From Steroidobacteraceae bacterium (GTDB lineage Bacteria > Pseudomonadota > Gammaproteobacteria > Steroidobacterales > Steroidobacteraceae), in contig DATHZW010000293.1 of the NCBI GenBank assembly GCA_035458405.1, positions 1 through 25,289 of the forward strand: DNA of 25,289 nt, in the 5' to 3' direction. The notes below the pieces were generated by a model that was not told the origin of the DNA, did no database searches, and worked only from the letters and a program-made list of their open reading frames with translations. The position numbers and the translations under genes are program-made. Below, one piece after another: positions 8,928-23,546 of this stretch. The first letter of the stretch is position 1. Every line of letters starts with the position of its first letter.

Positions 8928-10199
8928 CTATTCAGTCGGCTCCGGAAGGCGGCCCGAGCTGTCGGTGGAGCGGACCCAGGCCAGGAACGTCGCCACGCCG
9001 TTGACGGCGTTGACGCAACGGATCGAATGAAAGAGGTCGAAGGCGTGCTGCGCTCCGTAGAGTTCCGCGTAGGCCACCGGCTGGCAGGACACCCGGCGCA
9101 GCGCCGCCACGAACCGGCGTCCTCCCTCCGGCCAGACGAGCGAGTCATGCGACCCGTGCAGGACGAGGAACGGCGGCGCCTCGGCGTGGACACAGCGGAT
9201 CGGCGAGGCGCGCTCCCACTCGTCCCGCTCGTCCCGCGGGCTGGACTTCATGACCAGCCTTTCCACGAAGCTTGGACGCGACGACTGCGCCACGTCTTCG
9301 CCGTTGTGCTCCAGGAAGTCGAAGGCGCCGTAGAAGGGCACCGCCGCGACCACGGAGGTGTCGATGTCCTCGAAGCCGGGCTGGTACTGCGGATCGTTTG
9401 CGGTCAGGGCGACCAGCGAGGCGAGGTGCCCGCCGGCCGAGCCACCGGTCACCGCCAGGAACCCGGGATCGCCGCCGTAGTCGGCGATGTTCTCGCGGAT
9501 CCAGCGGATCGCCAGCTTGCAGTCGATGAGATGCTCCGGAAACGTCGCCTGCGGGCTGCGGCGGTAGTTCGGCGCGACACAGACCCAGCCCTGTCGCGCC
9601 ATCTCGTTCATCAGCGGCACGCCCTGGTCGTCCTTCCGGCCGAGGACCCATGCGCCGCCATGGATCTGCAGCAGCACCGGACAGCCGTGGGCGTGGCCGC
9701 GCGGCCGGTAGACATCCAGCCGGTTGCGCCGTCCAGCCGGACCGTAGACGATGTCCTTGACGCGCTCCACGTGCTCCCGGTCGTTGACGCGAAACGGCCT
9801 GACCCAGCGCGCGAACGGCGCGCCGGCCCTGAGCCCGGTGGCCCACTCCGGGCGGATGCCCTGGAAGAACCGCGCGCCAAGGCCTTCCTGCAGGCCGCGG
9901 TCGATCGCAGGCTGAGATTTCAGCGAGCGCCAGTGGAGCCGCAGCAGCAGCACCCAGGACGCCGCGACGAACGCCAGGCCGGCCCAGCCCTGCCAGTGAT
10001 CCAGGGCGCCCCACCAGGCAAAGACGGCCGTCACCAGCGCCGACAGCGCCATGTGGTGCAGCGGCAGCTCGGCGACCGGCCAGGCGACGAGGAAATACAG
10101 CGGACCCTGGCCCGGCGGCCAGCGGCCACGCGAAACGGCGACTGCCGTGCCGAAGGCACCCCAGGCAGCCAGGACCAGGTAGAGCCACGCCGCGATCAT
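8928..10199 (-). CDS. HSL-family alpha/beta hydrolase (esterase/lipase) with N-terminal membrane segments
   Basis: Oxyanion motif IHGGAW, nucleophile elbow GGSAGG, HG.HD (Asp) and QHAFD (His). The first ~90 aa contain 3-4 hydrophobic helices. ATGA-type overlap with the HMG-CoA reductase stop. Confidence 0.92.
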   Translation of the reverse strand: MIAAWLYLVLAAWGAFGTAVAVSRGRWPPGQGPLYFLVAWPVAELPLHHMALSALVTAVFAWWGALDHWQGWAGLAFVAASWVLLLRLHWRSLKSQPAIDRGLQEGLGARFFQGIRPEWATGLRAGAPFARWVRPFRVNDREHVERVKDIVYGPAGRRNRLDVYRPRGHAHGCPVLLQIHGGAWVLGRKDDQGVPLMNEMARQGWVCVAPNYRRSPQATFPEHLIDCKLAIRWIRENIADYGGDPGFLAVTGGSAGGHLASLVALTANDPQYQPGFEDIDTSVVAAVPFYGAFDFLEHNGEDVAQSSRPSFVERLVMKSSPRDERDEWERASPIRCVHAEAPPFLVLHGSHDSLVWPEGGRRFVAALRRVSCQPVAYAELYGAQHAFDLFHSIRCVNAVNGVATFLAWVRSTDSSGRLPEPTE

Positions 10200-11377
10200 G
10201 GCGCCGGTCGGTTGCGCCCGAGCCGCTCGTGGCTGGTGACCCAGTCGCCCGCGATGACGGAGCAGCCGAGCGAGATGTCACCTGCGAGCACGACTGCGGC
10301 GGCGATCTCTGCGAGCTTGTCGGCGGTGCCGGCGCCGTCGCAACCGAGAATCTTCAGGCATTCCTGCTGCGTGGGCAGGCCGGTGCCGCCGCCGCGCGTG
10401 CCGACGATGACGGACGGAAGCGTCACGGACCAGTAGTAGTCGCCGTTGTCACGGTACTGGGCGTAGGTGATCCCGGCATGGCACTCCGCGACGTTGGCCG
10501 CATCCTGGCCCGTCGCGATGAACAGGGCGGCGAGGCCGTTCGCGGCGTGGGGGCCGTTGTAGGTGGCGCCGGCCTGCATCGCCCCGGCGTTGGCGATGTT
10601 CCGGGCCCGGAACAGGGCCGAGGTCTCGACCCGCATGACGCGCCTGAGCACCTCGGCCGGGATGACGATCTCCGCGATCACGCGGCGCCCGCGCGAACGG
10701 ATGAGATTCATCGCCGAGTGTTTCTTGTCGGTGTCGGTGGCCCCCGACAGCATGTACTCCGGATGCAGCGGGTGGGCCTCGCGCAGCCACTCGCAGGCCG
10801 CATGGGTGGCCTTGCCGGTCATGTTCTGGCCCGCGGCGTCGCCGGTCGTGTAGTTGAAGCGCGTGTGCAGCAGGTTGCCGACGTTGTATTGCTCGATCTC
10901 GACCAGCCGGCCGTAGCCGGTCGTGCCTTCGGCGACCTGCCGGACCTCCTCGAAGCTCGCCGCGAGCCACTGGCCGAAGTCGCGGGCCTGCAATGCGTCG
11001 GCAAAGATGAACACCGGCGCGCGCTGCATCGACGTCTTGACGATTGTCGCCCTGACGCCGCCGCTCTCGGTGATCACGCGCGCGCCGCGGCTGTAGCTGG
11101 CGACGAGCGTGCCCTCGGTCGTGGCAAGCGGGATGTAGAAGTCGCCCCGCGCGTGCTCACCTATGATCCTGAGGGGCCCGGCCAGCCCGACCGGGACCTG
11201 GGCGACGCCGATCAGGTTCTCGACGTTGCCTGCCGTGAGGCCGGGATCGAAGGACAGGCGGGGCAGGTGCTCGAGCGAAGCCCCGGTTTGCTCCTCCAGG
11301 AATTCACGGCGACGCCGCAGCGCGGCGGCCGAGTAGTCATCCTGTGGATTGCGCGGAATCGGGATGCGCTCGCTCAT
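10196..11377 (-). CDS. hmgA: class I hydroxymethylglutaryl-CoA reductase
   Basis: 393 aa from MSERIPIPR (11377). ENLIG, PLATTEGTLVAS (Glu), GDAAGQNM, SGATDTDKK (Lys), TGQD (Asp), GTRGGGT and SHERLGR (His). All four catalytic positions of class I HMGR are recognisable. Confidence 0.92.
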   Translation of the reverse strand: MSERIPIPRNPQDDYSAAALRRRREFLEEQTGASLEHLPRLSFDPGLTAGNVENLIGVAQVPVGLAGPLRIIGEHARGDFYIPLATTEGTLVASYSRGARVITESGGVRATIVKTSMQRAPVFIFADALQARDFGQWLAASFEEVRQVAEGTTGYGRLVEIEQYNVGNLLHTRFNYTTGDAAGQNMTGKATHAACEWLREAHPLHPEYMLSGATDTDKKHSAMNLIRSRGRRVIAEIVIPAEVLRRVMRVETSALFRARNIANAGAMQAGATYNGPHAANGLAALFIATGQDAANVAECHAGITYAQYRDNGDYYWSVTLPSVIVGTRGGGTGLPTQQECLKILGCDGAGTADKLAEIAAAVVLAGDISLGCSVIAGDWVTSHERLGRNRPAP

Positions 11378-11838
11378 GGCGCCCGCCTCCCCGGTGCCGA
11401 GTCCATGCGAAACGCGAACGGCAGCAACTCGCCTATCGGCGCGGCACGCATCGCCGGACCCGGCCACGCGAAATGGACCAGGACGTCTGGCCCCAGCGCG
11501 AGCTCGCTGATGCGCTGGCGACAGCCACCGCAGGGGGAAATGCAGAAGGGCTCGCCGTCGTCGGTCTCGGCCCAGACGCCGACCTCGGCGATCCTGAACC
11601 CGGCGCCCTCCGCCAGGACGCCCGCGGCAATCGCCGCCGGTTCAGCGCAGTTGCCCAGGGGAAAGGCCGCGTTCTCGACGTTGCAGCCCGAGTAGATGCG
11701 CCCCGCCTGTGACAGCACGGCCGCGCCGACGTGGACGCCGGAACGCGACGCATAGGCCTGCCGCGCTGCTGACCGGGCGGCGTCGATCAACGCGTCCCGC
11801 GTGGCATCGTTTCCGGGCAACAGGCGAACGGCTTCCAT
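11374..11838 (-). CDS. cdd: homotetrameric-type cytidine deaminase
   Basis: GCNVENAAF, CAE, PCGGCRQ and LLPFAF motifs. The N-terminal AYAPYS motif is altered to AYASRS. Confidence 0.88.
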   Translation of the reverse strand: MEAVRLLPGNDATRDALIDAARSAARQAYASRSGVHVGAAVLSQAGRIYSGCNVENAAFPLGNCAEPAAIAAGVLAEGAGFRIAEVGVWAETDDGEPFCISPCGGCRQRISELALGPDVLVHFAWPGPAMRAAPIGELLPFAFRMDSAPGRRAP

Positions 11839-14202: not shown

Positions 14203-14253
14203 CGTTCCAATTATTCGCCCGTGCCGCGGGCGATCGCCCGACAGGTGACGCCG

Positions 14254-15159
14254 ATGACCACGCCCGGTACTGAGTCTAAATATGAAATCGTCGCGCGCGA
14301 GGACTTTTCCGACGTCACTTACCTGCTGGAAGTGAGTCACCCGCGCATGGCGCGGGCTGCAAAGCCGGGCCAGTTCGTGATCGTCATGTCGCACGCCGAA
14401 GGCGAGCGCATTCCGCTGACCATCGCCGACTTCGACCGCAAGAAGGGCACCATCACGCTGGTCATCCAGGCGGTCGGCAAGACCACCAAGGAAATGCAGC
14501 GCGACTGCAAGCTGGGCACCCGGCTGCACGCGCTGGTCGGGCCCATGGGCATCCCCAGCCACATCGGCGAGGCCAGGAAGGTGCTGTGCGTCGGTGGCGG
14601 CCTCGGCGTGGCGCCGGTCTTCCCGCAGGCGCGCGGCTTCAAGGAAGCCGGCGCCTACGTGATCGGCGTGCTTGGCTTCCGCAACAAGGACCTGGTGTTC
14701 TGGGAGGACAAGTTCCGCGGCGTCTGCGACGAACTGATCCTCTGCACGGATGACGGCTCGGCCGGCATCAAGGGCATGGTGACCGACGGCATGAAGCTGG
14801 CCATCGACAAGCACCCGGACATCGACGAGTGCGTCGCGATCGGCCCGCCGATCATGATGAAGTTCTGCGCCGCGACCACCAGGCCGCACGGCATCAAGAC
14901 CATGGTCAGCCTCAACCCGGTCATGGTCGACGGCACCGGCATGTGCGGCGGCTGCCGCGTCAAGCTCGACAGCGGCATCAAGTTCGCCTGCGTCGACGGG
15001 CCGGACTTCGACGGCCACGAGGTGGATTTCGACGACCTGATGTCGCGCCTCGGCCGCTATCGCGAGACCGAGCAGAAGGCAATGGCCCGATTCGAGGAAA
15101 GTTGCCACATGCGCGAAGACTTCGTGGCAGCCTCCGCCCAGGAAGCCAAGCCGGGCTGA
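14254..15159 (+). CDS. nfnA: NfnA/SudB-like FAD/NAD-binding [2Fe-2S] subunit (sulfide/dihydroorotate dehydrogenase-like)
   Basis: PGQFVIV, ERIPLTIAD, GPMG, GGGLGVAP, DGTGMCGGCRV...FACVDGPDFDGH (Asp/Cys3 [2Fe-2S] motif). Start is probably MTTPG at 14254. Confidence 0.9.
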   Translation: MTTPGTESKYEIVAREDFSDVTYLLEVSHPRMARAAKPGQFVIVMSHAEGERIPLTIADFDRKKGTITLVIQAVGKTTKEMQRDCKLGTRLHALVGPMGIPSHIGEARKVLCVGGGLGVAPVFPQARGFKEAGAYVIGVLGFRNKDLVFWEDKFRGVCDELILCTDDGSAGIKGMVTDGMKLAIDKHPDIDECVAIGPPIMMKFCAATTRPHGIKTMVSLNPVMVDGTGMCGGCRVKLDSGIKFACVDGPDFDGHEVDFDDLMSRLGRYRETEQKAMARFEESCHMREDFVAASAQEAKPG

Positions 15160-15213: not shown

Positions 15214-16746
15214 ATGGCAGCCAAGAAGCGGACCATCAGGACCATCCCCCAGGAACGCACGCCCATGCGCGAGCAGGATCCCGCGGAACGCGCCAGGAAC
15301 TTCCTGGAAGTGGCCTGCGGCTATTCGCTCGAGGACGCGCTGCGCGAATCCGAGCGCTGCCTCATGTGCGCGGACGAGCCCTGCGTGCGCGGCTGCCCGG
15401 TGAGCATCGACATCCCGGCCTTCATCAAGCAGATCGGCGAGAAGAATTTCCACGGCGCCTACGACGTCATCACCAACACCAACCTGCTGCCGGCCGTCTG
15501 CGGCCGCGTCTGCCCGCAGGAGAACCAGTGCGAGGGCGTCTGCACCGTGGCCGATTCGCTCGAACCGGTCGCCATCGGCCGGCTCGAGCGCTTCGTGGGC
15601 GACATGGCCATTGCCGAGGGCTGGAGCAACGTTCCCTACATCGAGCCGAGCGGCTTCAGGATAGGCATCGTCGGTTCCGGGCCCGCAGGCATGGCCTGCG
15701 CCGCGGACATGGCCAAGGCCGGCTGCGACGTGACCGTGTTCGAGGCCTTCCACGAGGCCGGCGGCGTGCTCAAGTACGGCATCCCGGACTTCCGCCTGCC
15801 CAACACCGTCGTGGACGCCGAACTCGGCAAGCTGATCGAGCTCGGCATCAAGTTCGAGTGCGACACCCTCGTCGGCCGGCTGTTCACCATCGAGGAGATG
15901 ATCGAGGAGATGGGCTTCCACGCCGTCTTCATCGGCACCGGCGCCGGCTACCCGAGCTTCATGGGCATTCCCGGCGAGTCGCTCAACGGCGTGCTCTCGG
16001 CCAACGAGCTGCTGACGCGCTGCAACCTGATGCACGGACGCGACCCGGAGCGCTACGACACGCCCCTGCCGCCGAGCAAGAACGTCGCGGTGATCGGCGC
16101 GGGCAACACCGCCATGGACGCGCTGCGCGTCAGCATGAGGCTCGGCGCGGAGAACGTGCATTGCATCTACCGCCGCAGCCGCGCCGAGGCGCCGGCGCGG
16201 GCCGAGGAGATCCACCACGCGGAAGAGGAAGGCGTCCAGTTCCACTGGCTGACCAACCCGCTGGAAATCCTCGACGACGGCAACAACAAGGTCCGCGGCC
16301 TGCGCTGCATCCGCATGGAGCTGGGGGAGCCCGACGAGTCCGGCCGGCGCCGCCCGGTCCCGGTCCCCGGCAGCGAGTTCGACTTCGAGGCGGACCTGGT
16401 CGTGTACGCCATCGGCACCAACGCCAACCCGATCATCGGCCAGACCTCGGGACTCGAGCTCAACAAGTGGGGCTATATCGCCACCGACGAGAACCTCGCG
16501 ACCTCGATCGCCGGCGTGTTCGCGGGCGGCGACATCGTCACCGGCGCGGCCACGGTCATCGAGGCGATGGGCGCAGGCCGCAAGGCGGCCCGCGGCATGA
16601 AGCAATGGCTCGGCCTGCGCGACACCGTCGAGGCCTTCGACGAAACCGGCAACCTGGACCGCGTCTTCGGCCTCGACGCACGCGAGCATGGCTTCGCCCT
16701 GGTGCGAGTCCCGCGTGACACAAGCTCTTCCAAGGCGGCTTCCTGA
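15214..16746 (+). CDS. nfnB: NfnB/SudA/GltD-like NADP(H)-binding flavoprotein with two [4Fe-4S] clusters (usually annotated gltA)
   Basis: RCLMCADEPCVRGCPV, CGRVCPQENQCEGVC, GSGPAG (FAD), YGIPDFRLP, GAGNTAMD plus YRRS (NADP type), GVFAGGDIVTG. No glutamate synthase large subunit in the window. Confidence 0.9.
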   Translation: MAAKKRTIRTIPQERTPMREQDPAERARNFLEVACGYSLEDALRESERCLMCADEPCVRGCPVSIDIPAFIKQIGEKNFHGAYDVITNTNLLPAVCGRVCPQENQCEGVCTVADSLEPVAIGRLERFVGDMAIAEGWSNVPYIEPSGFRIGIVGSGPAGMACAADMAKAGCDVTVFEAFHEAGGVLKYGIPDFRLPNTVVDAELGKLIELGIKFECDTLVGRLFTIEEMIEEMGFHAVFIGTGAGYPSFMGIPGESLNGVLSANELLTRCNLMHGRDPERYDTPLPPSKNVAVIGAGNTAMDALRVSMRLGAENVHCIYRRSRAEAPARAEEIHHAEEEGVQFHWLTNPLEILDDGNNKVRGLRCIRMELGEPDESGRRRPVPVPGSEFDFEADLVVYAIGTNANPIIGQTSGLELNKWGYIATDENLATSIAGVFAGGDIVTGAATVIEAMGAGRKAARGMKQWLGLRDTVEAFDETGNLDRVFGLDAREHGFALVRVPRDTSSSKAAS

Positions 16747-16779: not shown

Positions 16780-18702
16780 ATGAACGCCATCTCAGCAGCA
16801 GAAACCACCCCGAAGGCCGCCCGGCCGCGGTCCAGGGCGCCGAAGAAGGCCGTCAGGATCAGCGAGCACATCGTCGAGATCGTCAGCGACTCCGGCGAGG
16901 GCGCGCAGCGCTGCGGCCAGTCGCTGGGCTCGATCGCCGCCAGGATGGGCAACGGCGTCTGGACGGTCGAGATCATTCCCGCCGAGATCCAGCCGCCGGC
17001 ACGCAGCGTCGCCGGCGCCAGCGGCAACCGCATCCGGCTCGGCTCGAAGGCCATCAACAACGGCGGCGACCAGGCCGATCTGGTGATCGCCTTCAACGAA
17101 CAGGTCCTGCTCGGGCGCGTCCGCGGCGGCGAACTGAAGCGCGGCTGCGTCATCCTGCTCGAGAGCATGTGGAGCGAGCACCGCGACGCTGGCGTCCGCG
17201 CCGCGTATGCGGAGACCCTCGGGCACCTGCAGGAGGACGGGTTCCGCGTCATCGAGGTGCCGCTGGAACGCGAGTGCCTGAAGCTCGTGCCCGACGCCCG
17301 CAAGGGCAAGAACATGTTCGTGCTGGGCATGCTGTGCAGCATCTACAGCCTCGACGTGGAACTCGGGCGCGAGCAGGTGGCCTTCGCCCTGAAGAAGAAG
17401 GACCGCAAGGTCGTCGAGGCCAACCAGGGCCTGCTGGACGCCGGGTTCGCCTGGGCCGAGGAAAACCTCGACATCAAGTTCTCGATCCCGGCGGTCAAGG
17501 CCACCGAACCGCAGATCGTAGTCAACGGCAACACCGCACTCGCACTCGGCGTGCTGGCCTCGGGCATGGAAATCTGCGCCATGTACCCGATCACGCCGGC
17601 CACCTCGGTGTCGCATTACCTGAGCGACGTGTTCGAGCGCGTCGGCGGGCTGGTACACCAGGCCGAGGACGAGATTGCTGCCGCCGCGTTCACGATCGGC
17701 GCGTCCTACGCCGGCAAGTGCGCGCTGACCGTGACCTCCGGCCCCGGCTACTCGCTCAAGCAGGAGGCCATCGGGCTGGCCGTGATGGCCGAGATTCCGA
17801 TGGTCATCATCAACGTGCAGCGCGGCGGCCCCAGCACCGGGCAGCCGACCAAGGTGGAGCAAGGGGACCTGCTGACGGTCATGTACGGCAGCCACGGCGA
17901 CGCGCCCAAGGTGGTGCTGGCGCCGTCGAGCATCGAGGAGTGCTTCTACTCGGTGATTACGGCGCGAAAGATCGCCGAGACATTCAACATGGTCGTGGTG
18001 ATCCTCACGGATTCCAGCCTGGCCGCGTCGCAGACGCCGCTGCCGCGGCCGAAGTTCAACGAGGAGTGGCTGGCGCCGCCGATCGACCAGAGCCCCGTGC
18101 CAGCCGGCGCCAAGCCCTACGACTGGGATGAGTTCACCGGGCTGTTCAGGCGCTTCGCGCCCGGCCAGCCGGGCGGCATGCACACCATCACCGGCCTGGC
18201 GCACGACCGCTCCAGCCGCGTCGCCTACGACCCGTCCTCCAACGAGGAGGGCCTGCGGCATCGCAGCCTGAAGCTCGCGGCATTGCAGAAGACCCTGACC
18301 ACACCCTCGGTCTTCGGCGAGGACGAGGGCGACCTGCTGCTGATCGGCTGGGGCAGTACGCGCGGCGCGATCGAGGAGTCCGTGACCCGGTTGCGCGCGG
18401 AAGGCCACCGCGTCTCGTCGTTGCACCTGACCTTCCTGCAGCCGATGCCCTCCGGTATCGGCGAGATCATCAAGCGCGACAAGCGCGTCATGACCATCGA
18501 GAACAACTGGTCGGACCGCCTGCAGGACGACATCATCGACCATGAAAACCGGCGCTACTCGGCCCTCGCCTGGTTGCTGCGGGCGCGCTACCTGGTCGAC
18601 ATCGACTGCTGGAGCGAGTCGCGCGGCCAACCGATCAAGCCCAGCGACATCTGCAACGAGGTCCGCTCGAGGCTCGAGCGCACCGGGAGTAACAAGGCAT
18701 GA
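16780..18702 (+). CDS. korA: 2-oxoacid:ferredoxin oxidoreductase alpha subunit (gamma-alpha fusion, KorA-like)
   Basis: N-terminal gamma domain (DSGEGAQRCG, NMFVLG), YPITP, QAEDEIAA, TSGPGYSLKQE, QRGGPSTGQPTK, GWGSTRGAI. Substrate specificity cannot be fixed from sequence alone. Confidence 0.92.
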   Translation: MNAISAAETTPKAARPRSRAPKKAVRISEHIVEIVSDSGEGAQRCGQSLGSIAARMGNGVWTVEIIPAEIQPPARSVAGASGNRIRLGSKAINNGGDQADLVIAFNEQVLLGRVRGGELKRGCVILLESMWSEHRDAGVRAAYAETLGHLQEDGFRVIEVPLERECLKLVPDARKGKNMFVLGMLCSIYSLDVELGREQVAFALKKKDRKVVEANQGLLDAGFAWAEENLDIKFSIPAVKATEPQIVVNGNTALALGVLASGMEICAMYPITPATSVSHYLSDVFERVGGLVHQAEDEIAAAAFTIGASYAGKCALTVTSGPGYSLKQEAIGLAVMAEIPMVIINVQRGGPSTGQPTKVEQGDLLTVMYGSHGDAPKVVLAPSSIEECFYSVITARKIAETFNMVVVILTDSSLAASQTPLPRPKFNEEWLAPPIDQSPVPAGAKPYDWDEFTGLFRRFAPGQPGGMHTITGLAHDRSSRVAYDPSSNEEGLRHRSLKLAALQKTLTTPSVFGEDEGDLLLIGWGSTRGAIEESVTRLRAEGHRVSSLHLTFLQPMPSGIGEIIKRDKRVMTIENNWSDRLQDDIIDHENRRYSALAWLLRARYLVDIDCWSESRGQPIKPSDICNEVRSRLERTGSNKA

Positions 18703-19679
18703 CCAGCAACGCGACTCACTGCCTCGAGCGCATGTACGAGGACCGTCACGCCCTGGAGGACTACCAGGCCGGCGTGCCGCGCTGGTGCACCGGCTGCGGC
18801 GACAACGCCATCCTGACCGCCGTCCAGAGGCTGTGCCGGGATGAAGACCTGCGGCCGGAGAAGACCGTGTTCGTGTCGGGCATCGGCTGTTCCAGCCGCT
18901 TCCCGCACTACATGAAGACCTATGGCTTCCACGGCATTCACGGCCGCGCCCTGCCCATTGCGCAGGGCATCAAGATGGCTCGCCCCGACCTGAACGTGTT
19001 AATCAATACCGGCGACGGCGACTGCTGCAGCATCGGCGCCGGCCACTGGATCCACGCGATCCGCTACAACATGAACATGACGCTGCTGCTGCACGACAAC
19101 AACATCTACGGGCTGACCAAGAAGCAGGCGTCTCCGACGTCGCCGCTCGGCACCAGGAGCAACACCACGCCGCGTGGCGCCTACCTCGACGCGCTCAACC
19201 CGCTGACCGTGACGCTGGGCGTGCAGAACGCATCCTTCGTGGCGCAGGCGGTGGACTGGATCCCGGACCTGATGTACGACATCGTCTCGGCGGCCTTCCA
19301 CCACAAGGGCTTCTCCTTCGTGCGCATCCTGCAGCGCTGCCCGGTATTCATGCCGAAGGTCTTCGACACCTGGCTCAACGACACCCAGAAGTCGCTGATC
19401 CTGACCCACGACGACGGAATCCGGCCAGGCGCGGCGATCAGCAAGATCTACCGCAACCAGCTCGAACACGACCCTTCCGACATCGATCGGGCGCGGGAGA
19501 TCGCCTCCTGCCACGACCCGGTCCCGGTCGGAATCCTCTATCGCAACCCCGCGGTCCCCTGCTACGAGGAAATCCGCGGGGCTGGCGCCCAGCGCGCCCC
19601 CGAGATGGTCCGCAACGGCCTCGAGGCGGAGTTCGACAAGTTCACGGTCTGGCCGGAGGGCCAGCAGCCCGCGGCCTGA
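18699..19679 (+). CDS. korB: 2-oxoacid:ferredoxin oxidoreductase beta subunit (TPP-binding, KorB-like)
   Basis: WCTGCGD, SGIGCSSR, HGRALP.A.G, GDGD (TPP/Mg), NNIYGLTKKQASPT, QRCP. ATGA overlap with the alpha subunit. Confidence 0.94.
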   Translation: MTSNATHCLERMYEDRHALEDYQAGVPRWCTGCGDNAILTAVQRLCRDEDLRPEKTVFVSGIGCSSRFPHYMKTYGFHGIHGRALPIAQGIKMARPDLNVLINTGDGDCCSIGAGHWIHAIRYNMNMTLLLHDNNIYGLTKKQASPTSPLGTRSNTTPRGAYLDALNPLTVTLGVQNASFVAQAVDWIPDLMYDIVSAAFHHKGFSFVRILQRCPVFMPKVFDTWLNDTQKSLILTHDDGIRPGAAISKIYRNQLEHDPSDIDRAREIASCHDPVPVGILYRNPAVPCYEEIRGAGAQRAPEMVRNGLEAEFDKFTVWPEGQQPAA

Positions 19680-19727
19680 CGCGGGCCCGGGGAACGACCA
19701 CAAACAGACAGACGCCAGATCCAAACA

Positions 19728-21941
19728 ATGAACGCGAACGCGCAACTGCAGACCGTGTTTCACCTCACCGGCCGGCCGCCTGCCGCGCCGCTACAGGCGA
19801 TCAGCAAGCTCGGGCTGCGCCCGGCGATGCTGGCCCGCTACCGCGACCTGTCGCGCCTGCGTTACGACTTCCCGCTGGTGCTGATCCAGCCGGCGGCCGG
19901 CGGGCGCCTGGCGCGCTCGCTCAGCGACGTCGTCAACGAATTCGTGCGCAACAAGGTGCCTGCCGGGACGCCCGGCGAGGCCATGCGCCGGCAGCTGCTG
20001 CACGTGGAGCATGAAATTCGCCGCGCGGTCAGCAGCGGCGCCACCGGCCGGCTGTCGGACTTGTGGGGAATGGCGGTGGAGCGGGTCACGGCGAGCGCGG
20101 ACGCGCAGCTGGCGGACGCCCTGCGCAACGCCGGCCGCGCGCTGCCGGCGGACGGGGAAGTCATCGACTGCGACGAGGCGATGGCGGGAAAGCTCCTCGC
20201 GCACGCCTGGCGCGTCGTCCAGGGCGAGAAGCTGGGCCAGGTCCGCAAGGACATCAACGGCCTGACCGTCAGGTTGACCGACATCCTGCGGGCGGAATTC
20301 GTCCGCTCGGAGGCGGGGCGCACGCCGGAAAGCCTCAGGGTATCGGTCGGAACCGAGCAGCAGGGCCTCTTCGACTTCAACATGATGGCCCGGATGCTCG
20401 CGCTCGGGTCGCCGGCCAGCTGCCTGTCGAGTGCGCGCCGCAAGCGCATCGAGTGGGCCCTCGGCGTGCTGCGCTCGCAGCAATTCTTCCCCGCAGTGCC
20501 TGCCGTGGAGGACGACAACACCTACGAATTTTCCTTCGGCTCCTGCCGCGAGGTGCAGCAGGCGTTCCGCGAGCGCCTGCCGCGCATGGCCGAGCTGGTC
20601 AAGGCCATGTCGATCGCCGAGCTCGAGGGCGACGGCCGCTACGACGAGTCGCGTCATGACGCCTTCTTCGACGGCTTCGACGCCAACTCGCTGTCGCCGA
20701 AGGACATGGAGATCTGCCCCGCCTATTTCGTCCGCCTGCGCGGCCGGCCGGCCGGCGCCGCGACCGAAGGCAACCTGCTGGAACTGCTCTCGTCGGGCAT
20801 ACCGGTCAAGGTGCTGGTGGAGGCGGACGATCTCCTCGAGGAGTCCTCCCTCGGCCAGGCGCAGTTCGCTTGCGGCGTCCGCAGCGTGCAGCTTGCCAGC
20901 CTGGCGGTCGGGCTGAGCGACACCTTCGTGCTGCAGTCCACGAGCTCCAACCTGCCGGCGCTGCATGACCGGCTGCGAAGGGGCCTGGGCGTGGCCGGTC
21001 CTGCGCTGTTTTCCGTGTACACGCCCTCCGCGGCCCACCTGGGCCACCTTCCGCACTACCTCGTGGGCGCCGCCGCGATGCAGTCGCGCGCCTTTCCCGC
21101 GTTTACCTATGACCCGTCGGCGGGCGCCGACCTGGCGTCCCGGTTCTCGCTGGAAAACAACCCGCAACCCGACCGCGACTGGCCGGCCATGCGGTTCGAT
21201 TACGCGGACGAGAAGCTCCAGCGCATCACCGAGGACCTGGCGTTCACGCTGGCCGACTTCGTCGCCGTCGATCCCCGCTATGCGCGCCACTTCGCGCGCG
21301 TGCCGCATTCGGCCTGGGACGATCACATGGTGCCCATCGCCGAGTGGCTCGCCGGTCCCGCAGGTTCGAACAACAGCCGGGTCCCCTACCTGCTGGCGGT
21401 CGACGCCGGTGACGGGCTGCAGCGGCTGATCGTGGACGACCGGCTGGCCCGGGCCGCCCGCCGCTGCCTGGACGAATGGCACCGGCTGCAGGAGCTGGGC
21501 GGCATCAACAACTCGCATGCCGAGCGCCTGCTCGCCCGCGAGCGGGCCGCCTGGGAGGAGCAGAAACGCGAGGAGATCGAGGCCCTCGCGGGCGCAGCCG
21601 CGGCGGCTGCGGCGCCCGCCGCCGAGGCGGTTCCCGCGGCCGCGGCCCCGGCAGAGGTTCCGGAGGCCGCCGAGGCCGAGCCCGAGCGCTCGCCGGACGA
21701 GGCCTACATCGAGACCATCCGTTGTTCGACCTGCAACGAGTGCACGCAGATCAACGACAAGATGTTCGCCTACAACGACAACAAGCAGGCCTACATCAAG
21801 GACATCAAGGCGGGCACCTACCGGCAGATGATCGAGGCGGCCGAGAGCTGCCAGCTCGGCATCATCCATCCCGGCAAGCCGATCGACCCGAAGGAGCCGG
21901 GCCTCGAGGAACTGCTGGAGCGCGCCAAGCCGTTCATGTAG
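19728..21941 (+). CDS. 737-aa protein: unknown N-terminal region + degenerate PFOR TPP-domain-like region + Ala/Pro/Glu linker + C-terminal monocluster ferredoxin
   Basis: C-terminal C666-x2-C669-x2-C672...C708 (CSTCNEC...AESC). The central segment aligns by eye with the PFOR C-terminal domain (LLELLSSGIPVKVLV; GPALFSVYTPS; FPAFTYDP). Codon usage looks native. Confidence 0.82.
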   Translation: MNANAQLQTVFHLTGRPPAAPLQAISKLGLRPAMLARYRDLSRLRYDFPLVLIQPAAGGRLARSLSDVVNEFVRNKVPAGTPGEAMRRQLLHVEHEIRRAVSSGATGRLSDLWGMAVERVTASADAQLADALRNAGRALPADGEVIDCDEAMAGKLLAHAWRVVQGEKLGQVRKDINGLTVRLTDILRAEFVRSEAGRTPESLRVSVGTEQQGLFDFNMMARMLALGSPASCLSSARRKRIEWALGVLRSQQFFPAVPAVEDDNTYEFSFGSCREVQQAFRERLPRMAELVKAMSIAELEGDGRYDESRHDAFFDGFDANSLSPKDMEICPAYFVRLRGRPAGAATEGNLLELLSSGIPVKVLVEADDLLEESSLGQAQFACGVRSVQLASLAVGLSDTFVLQSTSSNLPALHDRLRRGLGVAGPALFSVYTPSAAHLGHLPHYLVGAAAMQSRAFPAFTYDPSAGADLASRFSLENNPQPDRDWPAMRFDYADEKLQRITEDLAFTLADFVAVDPRYARHFARVPHSAWDDHMVPIAEWLAGPAGSNNSRVPYLLAVDAGDGLQRLIVDDRLARAARRCLDEWHRLQELGGINNSHAERLLARERAAWEEQKREEIEALAGAAAAAAAPAAEAVPAAAAPAEVPEAAEAEPERSPDEAYIETIRCSTCNECTQINDKMFAYNDNKQAYIKDIKAGTYRQMIEAAESCQLGIIHPGKPIDPKEPGLEELLERAKPFM

Positions 21942-21947
21942 GTCGTG

Positions 21948-21975
21948 GCGGTGCCAGGCACGTGCTTGACACCTC
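21948..21975. repeat. 28-bp REP-like imperfect palindrome, copy 1
   Basis: GCGGTGCCAGGCA-CG-TGCTTGACACCTC. Matches copy 2 at 23 of 28 positions (hand count). Begins 6 nt after the upstream stop codon. Confidence 0.75.
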
Positions 21976-22019
21976 CCGCTTGTTTAGACTCCCGGTACCA
22001 CGCAGAACGGGAGCCGACC

Positions 22020-23174
22020 ATGACGAGCAATCCTGCCGCCTCGCCGCGGACTCGCCCATCTCTCTTCGCGGCCGCCGCACTGCTGCTGGCCGCCACGCTG
22101 GCATTGCCGGCGAACTCAGCCGACTGGGTGACCGACGCCGAGACCGCGGCCATCATCCAGCGTCTCGGGCTCATCGAGTCGCCGGCGCCGGTTCGCGAGC
22201 GCGCCGGATGGCGGAAGCCAGAGCGAATCCTGGTCGTGCAATACGATCCCGCGCGGATCGAATGGCTGCAGCAGGCCGTGCCGGACGTGAAACTCGTCGC
22301 CGTCGACAGCGTCGCGGCAGCCGTGGCGGCCGCCCCGGAAGCCGACGCAATCATCGGCATCTGCAACCAGGACGTCTTTGCGGCCGGTCCCCGCATTGCA
22401 TGGGTCCAGATCCTGTCGGCCGGCGCCGAGCGCTGCGTATCCGTGCCGGCCATCGGCGAACGCGACATCCTGCTGACCAACATGCAGCGCATCTCCGGCC
22501 CGGTGATGTCCGAGCACGTGCTGGCCATGATGCTGGCGCTGGGCCGCGGCCTTCCGGCATACCTCGACGCGCAGCGCGATGGCCGCTGGGACCGGGAACT
22601 CGTGCCTGACGGCCGCATGTGGGCCATGGAGGGCAAGACGGTGCTGGTCGTCGGCCTCGGCGGCATCGGCGTCGAGGTGGCAAGGCGCGCCCACGCCCTG
22701 GGCATGAAGGTCACGGCGATCCGCGCCAGCGGGCGGACGGGACCCGGGTTTGTGTCGAAGGTCGGGCTGCCCGCGGAAATGCCGCAGTTCGCCGCGACCG
22801 CCGATTTCGTCGTGAATACCACCCCGCTGACCGACGCCACGCGCGGCATGTTCGACGCGGATTTCTTCGACTCGATGCATCGCGGCGCTTACTTCATCAA
22901 CGTCGGACGCGGCCAGAGCGTCGTCACCGACGCCCTGGTCGCGGCGCTGCGCTCGGGGCAGGTCGGAGGCGCCGGGCTCGATGTCACGGACCCCGAACCG
23001 CTGCCATCCGATCATCCCCTGTGGCGGCTGCCCAACGTGATCGTCACGCCGCACGTCTCCGGGCAGTCCGACCTGGGCAACGAGGACCACTGGCGAATCA
23101 CGCGCGAGAACCTGGGCCGCTACGTGGCCGGCGGCAGGATGCTGTCGGTCGTGGATCCGGCCAGGGGCTACTGA
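22020..23174 (+). CDS. D-2-hydroxyacid dehydrogenase family protein with apparent N-terminal signal peptide
   Basis: Rossmann motif VGLGGIG, catalytic Arg (INVGRG), Glu (DVTDPEP) and His (TPHVSG). N-terminus MTSNPAASPRTRPSLFAAAALLLAATLALPANS/A. GGGAG SD before 22020. Confidence 0.92.
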   Translation: MTSNPAASPRTRPSLFAAAALLLAATLALPANSADWVTDAETAAIIQRLGLIESPAPVRERAGWRKPERILVVQYDPARIEWLQQAVPDVKLVAVDSVAAAVAAAPEADAIIGICNQDVFAAGPRIAWVQILSAGAERCVSVPAIGERDILLTNMQRISGPVMSEHVLAMMLALGRGLPAYLDAQRDGRWDRELVPDGRMWAMEGKTVLVVGLGGIGVEVARRAHALGMKVTAIRASGRTGPGFVSKVGLPAEMPQFAATADFVVNTTPLTDATRGMFDADFFDSMHRGAYFINVGRGQSVVTDALVAALRSGQVGGAGLDVTDPEPLPSDHPLWRLPNVIVTPHVSGQSDLGNEDHWRITRENLGRYVAGGRMLSVVDPARGY

Positions 23175-23180
23175 CCGGCG

Positions 23181-23208
23181 GAGGCGCCAGGCAGGTGCCT
23201 GGCACCTC
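23181..23208. repeat. 28-bp REP-like palindrome, copy 2
   Basis: GAGGCGCCAGGCA-GG-TGCCTGGCACCTC: 13-bp arms with one mismatch. Begins 6 nt after the dehydrogenase stop codon. Confidence 0.75.
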
Positions 23209-23231
23209 TCAACGCAACAAGGAGGCAACAC

Positions 23232-23546
23232 ATGCTCGTCACCACTACCGCGACGCTGCAGGATCGCAAGATCGGCCAGTATCTCGGCCTCGTCACCGGG
23301 GAATCCATCCTGGGCGCCAACATCTTCCGGGACGTGTTCGCAGGCATCCGCGACATCGTCGGCGGACGGGCCGGCTCCTACGAGAAGGTGCTGCGCGACG
23401 CGCGCAACATGGCCGTGGAGGAAATGGTCGAGCAGGCCCGCAAGCTGGGCGCGAATGCCGTCATCGGCGTCGACGTCGATTACGAGACCGTCGGCGGGAC
23501 CATGCTGATGGTCAGCGTCAGCGGCACGGCCGTGCAGGCGGACTGA
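23232..23546 (+). CDS. ybjQ: YbjQ/UPF0145 family (putative heavy-metal-binding) protein
   Basis: [41 protein letters not shown]...[13 protein letters not shown]...[20 protein letters not shown]. Confidence 0.94.

Follow-up and report, generated by a model that had tools for sequence, protein, structure and literature searches.

Two-subunit 2-oxoacid oxidoreductases carry one iron-sulfur cluster and require an external ferredoxin. For most bacteria, we know of no account of which carrier serves them or by which route their low-potential electrons reach NAD(P). We met this question in a stretch of 25,289 nucleotides from a Steroidobacteraceae bacterium (NCBI GenBank assembly GCA_035458405.1, contig DATHZW010000293.1, positions 1 to 25,289; hereafter the window), where a gene that we call gene X (P0001) closes the gene run nfnA-nfnB-korA-korB-X. 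An earlier note, made from the letters of the DNA, had claimed that positions 20700–21180 encode the thiamine pyrophosphate (TPP)-binding domain of a pyruvate:ferredoxin oxidoreductase (PFOR) with its cofactor motifs erased, which would mimic a beta subunit as a docking or scaffold protein. What, then, is the product of gene X, and what could it do behind korAB? Gene X is a pseudoenzyme, the catalytic residues being lost throughout its family while purifying selection persists, and residues 1–626 of its product correspond to PFOR domains V and VI in degenerate form. As judged from the sequence, this entire stretch, and not residues 330–490 alone, would be a PFOR relic holding neither TPP nor any of the three iron-sulfur clusters. 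The C-terminal ferredoxin, with its four cysteines, presumably binds a [4Fe-4S] cluster as the sole redox centre left. Gene X and its parts are as follows.

19728–21941, plus strand: gene X (P0001), a 737-residue open reading frame (ORF) for a predicted cofactor-less PFOR relic with a tethered ferredoxin
19728–20144, plus strand: remnant of domain V, residues 1–139, with both CxxCxxCxxxC cluster motifs gone (hhalign, VIA-align)
20145–20699, plus strand: front of the domain VI remnant, residues 140–324, with V145 and C148 replacing the CxxC motif, the third cysteine gone, and long helices (multiple alignment, hhalign)
20700–21179, plus strand: TPP-binding core, residues 325–484, with GDG and YSNTGGQ gone, S434 as the former fourth cluster cysteine, and a conserved ESRAFPxFxYDP (hhalign, BLASTP, multiple alignment)
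21180–21512, plus strand: beta-rich C-terminal part of domain VI, residues 485–595 (BLASTP to the single-chain PFOR P0271, the tails of 14 split PFORs, VIA-align)
21513–21605, plus strand: long charged helix (the arm), residues 596–626 (helical in the AlphaFold2 (AF2) model; aligned with the equivalent helix of P0271)
21606–21692, plus strand: flexible Ala/Pro/Glu-rich tether of 29 residues, 627–655 (pLDDT <50 at residues 627–649)
21693–21938, plus strand: single-cluster ferredoxin (C666, C669, C672, C708) and C-terminal helix, residues 656–737 (Pfam, PDB search, VIA-align)

Searches of the PDB with the protein (phmmer) and with the family profile (hmmsearch) returned ferredoxin I only and no PFOR, and residues 1–650 have no Pfam or NCBIfam match, NCBIfam being silent on the whole protein. 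The relationship to PFOR emerged from profile-profile comparison and from active relatives. Local hhalign comparison of trimmed regions of the family with 12 canonical PFORs gave a probability of 82% (E 1e-5), and comparison with the clade of active relatives gave a probability of 100% (E 9e-50), the 638 aligned columns running from the beginning of domain V into the ferredoxin. BLASTP matched gene X to two active-looking relatives, P0271 (E 2e-29 over residues 286–618) and P0272 (E 6e-20), and a genome search with the family profile picked up about 50 split-PFOR beta'-type genes at E ~1e-22. By sequence, gene X descends from the PFOR/2-oxoacid:ferredoxin oxidoreductase (OFOR) family.

We modeled gene X with AF2 using an alignment of 98 family members, and obtained a confident model (pLDDT 91.7, pTM 0.82) with disorder confined to residues 627–649. 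Foldseek, which the earlier note had proposed as a check, placed PFOR chains at all of ranks 1–18 of the PDB (best E 1.8e-5), with oxalate oxidoreductase beta, PorB and the Sulfolobus OFOR beta subunit among the lower ranks. VIA-align superimposed residues 46–592 of the model on residues 691–1170 of the Moorella PFOR 6cio_D with a Z-score of 19.0 (270 residues, root-mean-square deviation 5.5). The pairing of residue 46 with PFOR residue 691 supports the domain V remnant. At the other end, the aligned range on the model extends to residues 589–594, and the part spanning residues 485–595 closes with W..LQELGG, a motif common to active relatives. Homodimeric PFORs from D. africanus (1B0P/2C3Y) and M. 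thermoacetica (6CIN–6CIQ) share the domain VI fold with Z-scores of 17–19. Among OFOR beta subunits, oxalate oxidoreductase (5EXE; 16.3 for 5exe_C residues 3–307, the entire subunit) and PorB (9BT4) reach 16, and the KorB-type subunits of 2-oxoglutarate:ferredoxin oxidoreductase (OGOR, 6N2N) and of H. pylori Oor reach 11–12. Generic thiamine diphosphate enzymes score about 9. Sequence identity is 13–17% to PFOR and oxalate oxidoreductase beta, and 6–9% to PorB and KorB-type beta subunits. According to the model, the body of gene X has the fold of PFOR domain VI or of the corresponding beta subunit (PP domain). The notion of a ~160-residue domain mimicking a beta subunit does not survive these comparisons: the relic comprises residues 1–626, derives from a single-chain PFOR (its domains V and VI), resembles PFOR (Z 19) more than KorB-type OGOR beta (Z 11–12), and its ancestor already possessed the arm, the tether and the ferredoxin. 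The 737-residue form begins at the domain V remnant, and domains I, II and III were not found in it.

All segments on which the earlier alignment by eye rested lie in the 737-residue ORF within 20700–21180: YFVRLRGRPAGAATEGNLLELL at residues 333–354 (nt 20724–20789), GPALFSVYTPS at residues 424–434 (nt 20997–21029) and RAFPAFTYDP at residues 454–463 (nt 21087–21116). The PFOR strings used in that alignment agree with real PFORs, e.g., that of locus L092 with YSNTGGQ and GPSLIIAYSPC. The alignment itself was reproduced in four independent ways, by hhalign against canonical PFORs, by BLASTP against P0271, by hhalign against the active clade and by structure comparison. TPP and all three cluster sites of the canonical enzymes are predicted to be absent from gene X. 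The counterpart of GDG is R-G-R or G-R-P, the alignments differing by one residue (GGDG corresponds to RGRP), and S434 stands in place of the fourth cysteine of the proximal cluster, so that both substitutions read by eye are borne out. YSNTGGQ, described earlier as absent, is indeed gone as a motif, yet it was overwritten rather than deleted: DTGTYSNTGGQ corresponds to DDLLEESSLGQ, with LLEESSLGQ in place of the motif itself, followed by a deletion of 16–18 residues. Further losses went beyond the earlier note. The CxxC motif of the proximal cluster corresponds to V145...C148, leaving C148 as the sole ligand of four, and the third cysteine aligns with a non-cysteine residue near position 209. 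The N-terminal ~140 residues are a domain V without clusters: in the hhalign alignment with the active clade, RYDFPLVL of gene X pairs with the strand preceding the deleted first cluster motif of domain V, and the second motif is overwritten.

The ferredoxin is the part recognised by Pfam, with Fer4_13 at residues 663–714 (E 4.1e-5, 24.6 bits, cut-off 24.5). It matched D. africanus ferredoxin I (1dax/1fxr) at E 5.5e-4 in the PDB sequence search, and residues 656–718 superimpose on 1fxr with a VIA-align Z-score of 9.3. The C-terminal 60 residues share the four cysteines and the fold with this Fer4_13 protein (1DAX/1FXR), but they are tethered to a 650-residue body and have glutamine instead of proline after the fourth cysteine. 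Across the family, the tether consists of 36% alanine, 18% proline and 13% glutamate, and the span between reference residues 626 and 660 varies from 15 to 56 residues, with a median of 36.

We surveyed the motifs in 229 family members. The ferredoxin ligands C666, C669, C672 and C708 are each retained in 226–229 of them, whereas the GDG columns are variable and no GDG is conserved; among homologues, the motif is kept only in the active sister clade. Homologues with GDG, which the earlier note had named as a refuting finding, thus do not occur inside the family as a conserved feature. GDG strings occur in three members and were dismissed as chance, as these three have neither CxxC, the third and fourth cysteines, nor YSNTGGQ. 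Position 434 is A, T or S throughout, and C148 is present in 217 members (95%). A rebuilt metal site comprising C148, C273, C336, C514 and C580 was considered and rejected as a family feature, the cysteines occurring in 27 presence patterns with no fixed set. Conservation within the body is lowest in the former cofactor loop, residues 325–378, where 3 of 54 columns reach ≥90%; outside the ferredoxin it is highest in region 424–484 with ESRAFPxFxYDP, where 16 of 61 columns do. Key residues of this region are common to active relatives, which indicates structural or interface roles. K361, D367/D368, R240 and R454 are highly conserved in the family; R240, R454, K361 and W584 are conserved in active relatives as well.

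The ratio of nonsynonymous to synonymous substitution rates (dN/dS) of gene X is 0.24 overall and 0.22–0.29 against three close relatives. For the three sufficiently diverged comparisons, the values are 0.18–0.22 in residues 325–484 and 0.04–0.13 in the ferredoxin. KorA and KorB have values of 0.08 and 0.11, indicating that gene X is maintained under looser constraint than both. The confident model, the losses among the 229 members and the low dN/dS of the former TPP-binding core uphold the original view of a pseudoenzyme that kept its fold after its cofactor motifs were erased.

Where did this family come from? It comprises at least 2266 clusters at 50% identity, and homologues with 96–35% identity span residues 1–737. 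Its records carry labels of Pseudomonadota, Acidobacteria, Gemmatimonadota, Myxococcota, Chloroflexia and actinobacterial families, and databases name its members “ferredoxin” or “hypothetical protein.” Long forms of 1236–1460 residues have an extra N-terminal region that matches PFOR domains I–III (hhalign probability 99%, E 3e-18) with the domain motifs degenerate or gone. KorA was tried as the source of this region and rejected (hhalign probability of only 9.6%). The match to domains I–III traces the family to a single-chain PFOR rather than to KorAB. Every variant retains the C-terminal ferredoxin. A tree of 62 domain VI sequences, with canonical PFOR as the root, groups all of the 39 dead forms, gene X among them, in a single clade (SH-aLRT 100) whose long stem measures 2.02 substitutions per site, which suggests that the dead forms have a single origin. 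Their sister group consists of active PFOR-ferredoxin fusions (support 99), and both lie within a grade of split PFORs.

The active fusion P0271 (L102:1709–6745) is an uncharacterised single-chain PFOR of 1679 residues. It retains domains I–III, the two cluster motifs of domain V and, in domain VI, CxxC, GGDG, YSNTGGQ and cysteines three and four of the proximal cluster; its C-terminal end consists of an arm helix, a tether rich in alanine and a ferredoxin with the pattern CxxCxxC...C. In this genome (G038; L102:1709–9667), the PFOR-ferredoxin gene is directly followed by one for a 967-residue NfnB-NfnA fusion, and, to judge from the sequences, the two may form an uncharacterised pyruvate:NAD(P)+ system. 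The arrangement is likely the ancestral state of gene X. Both proteins share domain V, domain VI, a helix insert (HD..FF), ESR..P..(Y/H)(D/N)P, W..LQ.L.G, the arm, the tether and the ferredoxin. Both are also associated with Nfn genes. However, P0271 retains the catalytic motifs and domains I–III, whereas gene X lacks these and stands behind korAB. P0272 (L101) is the 558-residue domain V+VI part of a split PFOR, whose other gene encodes 677 residues. It shares GPAL..VYT, ESRAFPxFTYDP and NW..LQ.LAG with gene X, but keeps all cofactor motifs, as expected of an active enzyme, and has no tethered ferredoxin. The alpha' beta' PFOR of Magnetococcus marinus is the only characterised enzyme of its kind (Bonitatibus et al., 2025, PMC12337175; November 2026 review of PFOR diversity, PMC13768988), and L101 matches this type by architecture only. 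The review describes domains I, II and III, which include the PYR domain and the CoA site, as essential in all PFORs (PMC13768988), and the two sections of it examined make no mention of dead relatives or of forms with a tethered ferredoxin. In the library searched, we found no description of a dead-PFOR/tethered-ferredoxin family and nothing relevant on a pseudoenzyme PFOR, on korA/korB combined with nfnA/nfnB or on OGOR acting with NfnAB.

The genes preceding gene X in the window suggest the partners with which its product may act. All four are encoded on the same strand, with gene X as the fifth and last of the run.

14221–15159, plus strand: NfnA-like subunit (DHODB_Fe-S_bind)
15214–16746, plus strand: NfnB/GltD-like subunit (Fer4_20, Pyr_redox_2)
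16780–18702, plus strand: korA, a fused gamma-alpha subunit (POR, POR_N, PFOR_II; TIGR03710 above cut-off)
18699–19679, plus strand: korB, an intact beta subunit with TPP and cluster motifs (TPP_enzyme_C, PFO_beta_C)

The korB product scores 246.1 bits against TIGR02177, slightly below the cut-off of 261.9 bits. Both korA and korB are seemingly intact, and neither has a ferredoxin domain. We examined the gene order in 80 loci from named genomes, among whose labels are Gamma-, Beta- and Alphaproteobacteria, Gaiellaceae, Gemmatimonadota, Acidobacteria, Myxococcota and Chloroflexia. Counting loci with enough upstream flank, korB lies upstream of X on the same strand in 51 of 51, korA in 45 of 45, nfnB in 39 of 40 and nfnA in 38 of 38, the sole exception to the nfnA-nfnB-korA-korB-X order being one locus without nfnB. 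Long and middle forms also sit directly after korAB, and in some loci the start of X overlaps the stop of korB. These forms are followed by RnfB-like, PFOR-like and RnfC-like genes and have no Nfn genes; at L105:10615–16657 (NCBI CP070677.1), and also at L008, korA-korB-X precedes genes for an RnfB-like Fe-S protein, a 1528-residue PFOR-like protein and an RnfC-like protein.

A second, paralogous Kor set adjoins X at L035:10475–15498 and about 20 related loci, many of them of Burkholderiales type. It encodes a 632-residue NfnB-like protein fused to a two-cluster ferredoxin domain, KorA2 and KorB2, with ~30% identity to the first set. It resembles the three-subunit KorABC type, the 2-oxoglutarate:NADP+ oxidoreductase of Azoarcus evansii (Ebenau-Jehle et al., 2003, J Bacteriol 185:6119), in which KorAB is reportedly wired to an NfnB/GltD-like flavoprotein. 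The Azoarcus enzyme would be a functional analogue of the operon studied here, with its ferredoxin domain reportedly fused to the flavoprotein; the X operon differs in placing the ferredoxin on a dead PFOR body and in including an NfnA-like subunit. By analogy, the paralogous set with its NfnB-ferredoxin fusion would be an alternative route to the same connection.

Downstream of X, the gene content is more variable, and the dehydrogenase following it is not conserved among loci. Genes for a 2-hydroxyacid dehydrogenase and YbjQ (21945–23546) follow X in the window and in L122. The close relatives L123 (5226–5822) and L124 (2762–3370) have neither, and an AlkB-like 2OG-Fe(II) oxygenase gene comes directly after X there. 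This presence or absence is an insertion/deletion polymorphism, in agreement with the REP-like palindromes noted earlier on both sides of the dehydrogenase gene. In L122, where X is 96% identical to that of the window, korB was called as two ORFs of 190 and 135 residues (1973–2952), owing either to a frameshift or to an assembly error. Metagenomes of riverine, freshwater, soil, sediment and estuary origin contain DNA nearly identical to 18699–21941 (80–85% of the words sampled); these data come from 11 studies, RNA libraries included, indicating that the organism is widespread. Further upstream in the window, a run of minus-strand genes includes a complete HMG-CoA reductase (10196–11467, minus strand, Pfam E 6.5e-120).

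We think it probable that gene X encodes a non-catalytic descendant of PFOR with a tethered ferredoxin, acting as scaffold and electron carrier between KorAB and NfnAB. The relic body would be a docking scaffold within a complex that also includes NfnAB and KorAB, the latter with one cluster and without a ferredoxin domain. On its tether, the ferredoxin would swing between the cluster of KorB and those of NfnB, and 2-oxoacid oxidation or synthesis could be linked to NAD(P)H with no need for free ferredoxin. During evolution, an ancestral PFOR-ferredoxin/Nfn system may have ceded its catalytic part to KorAB and kept the electron-output module. Docking on KorAB and NfnB, as we infer it, agrees with the fixed gene order. 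Two analogies favour the proposal, the NfnB-NfnA fusion beside the active sister P0271 and the paralogous Kor set with a ferredoxin domain on its NfnB-like subunit, and contigs from two metatranscriptome studies cover gene X at ~98% identity without indels, two of them spanning the korB-X junction. Several observations nevertheless weigh against this proposal. Gene order is no proof of a complex, and the middle and long forms with Rnf-type genes make plain that the Nfn partner is not universal. The tree came from a quick search, with the active sister clade sampled from one genus. Contigs from RNA libraries may contain DNA, and they give no strand, transcript ends, expression level or proof of transcription. 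C148 together with the variable cysteines 273, 336, 514 and 580 could bind metal in some members, and D367/D368 with K361, conserved near the old Mg site, might conceivably hold a ligand other than TPP. A bolder version of the proposal makes gene X the keystone of a stoichiometric NfnAB-KorAB-X supercomplex of a kind not yet described: the dead PFOR body would keep its parts together, and the swinging ferredoxin would privately ferry low-potential electrons between the site of 2-oxoacid conversion and a bifurcating or confurcating flavin-based module. This is possible, though we put it forward only tentatively.

Other roles for the relic can be envisaged. It might be a pseudo-protomer that pairs with one KorAB through the conserved OFOR dimer interface and takes the place of the second catalytic unit; the enzyme would then be asymmetric, with a single active site and a single tethered ferredoxin. 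The dimerisation core is similar in all OFORs, according to the PFOR review (PMC13768988), the long forms with their degenerate domains I–III resemble a complete dead protomer that always follows korAB, and the overlap of the X start with the korB stop in some loci fits such a pairing. We nevertheless judge it unlikely, as the short form lacks domains I–III and with them much of the dimer interface, and the interfaces of a descendant of single-chain PFOR may not match those of the KorAB lineage. Alternatively, a small ligand, for instance CoA, a nucleotide, a metal or a 2-oxoacid, might still bind in the relic pocket, which would make gene X a regulatory or sensing subunit that gates electron flow and is more than a passive scaffold. 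The strong conservation of K361, D367/D368, R240 and R454, the near-constant C148 and the purifying selection over the entire body speak for such a sensor. However, loop 325–378 is the very part of the body that varies most, the conservation of R240, R454, K361 and W584 in active relatives suggests structural roles, and the cysteine patterns are heterogeneous, so that we regard this function as quite improbable.

Taking the database name “ferredoxin” at face value, gene X could be a free-standing dedicated ferredoxin for several enzymes, outside any Kor-Nfn complex and with a body that merely stabilises the cluster or protects it, e.g., from oxygen; the ferredoxin is, after all, the most constrained part. 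It is hard to explain in this way why a 650-residue body is under purifying selection and fixed immediately after korB in several phyla, and in the active sister proteins this arm and ferredoxin serve as an output in cis, which makes this role very improbable. That gene X is still catalytic, through unconventional TPP binding or some other chemistry, we consider hardly credible. The fold is intact and three members contain a GDG string, yet the other cofactor motifs are missing from precisely these three. The TPP site is built jointly by domains I and VI (PMC13768988). TPP activation would need domain I (PYR domain), which the short form lacks, and the motifs of this domain are gone from the long forms.

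The proposal of a PFOR-derived scaffold with a tethered carrier concerns a very common family for which Pfam and NCBIfam hold no model of the first 650 residues. It suggests a fixed unit of five genes, one of them for a dead enzyme put to new use as the holder of a tethered electron carrier. If the complex is real, the family would clearly exemplify how a catalytic module can be displaced and its electron-output module retained, and it would provide a testable route between 2-oxoacids and NAD(P)H in organisms of oxic habitats. If the supercomplex were real as well, ferredoxin-level chemistry, including NAD(P)H-driven reductive carboxylation, could proceed in bacteria of oxic soil and water without a free ferredoxin pool.

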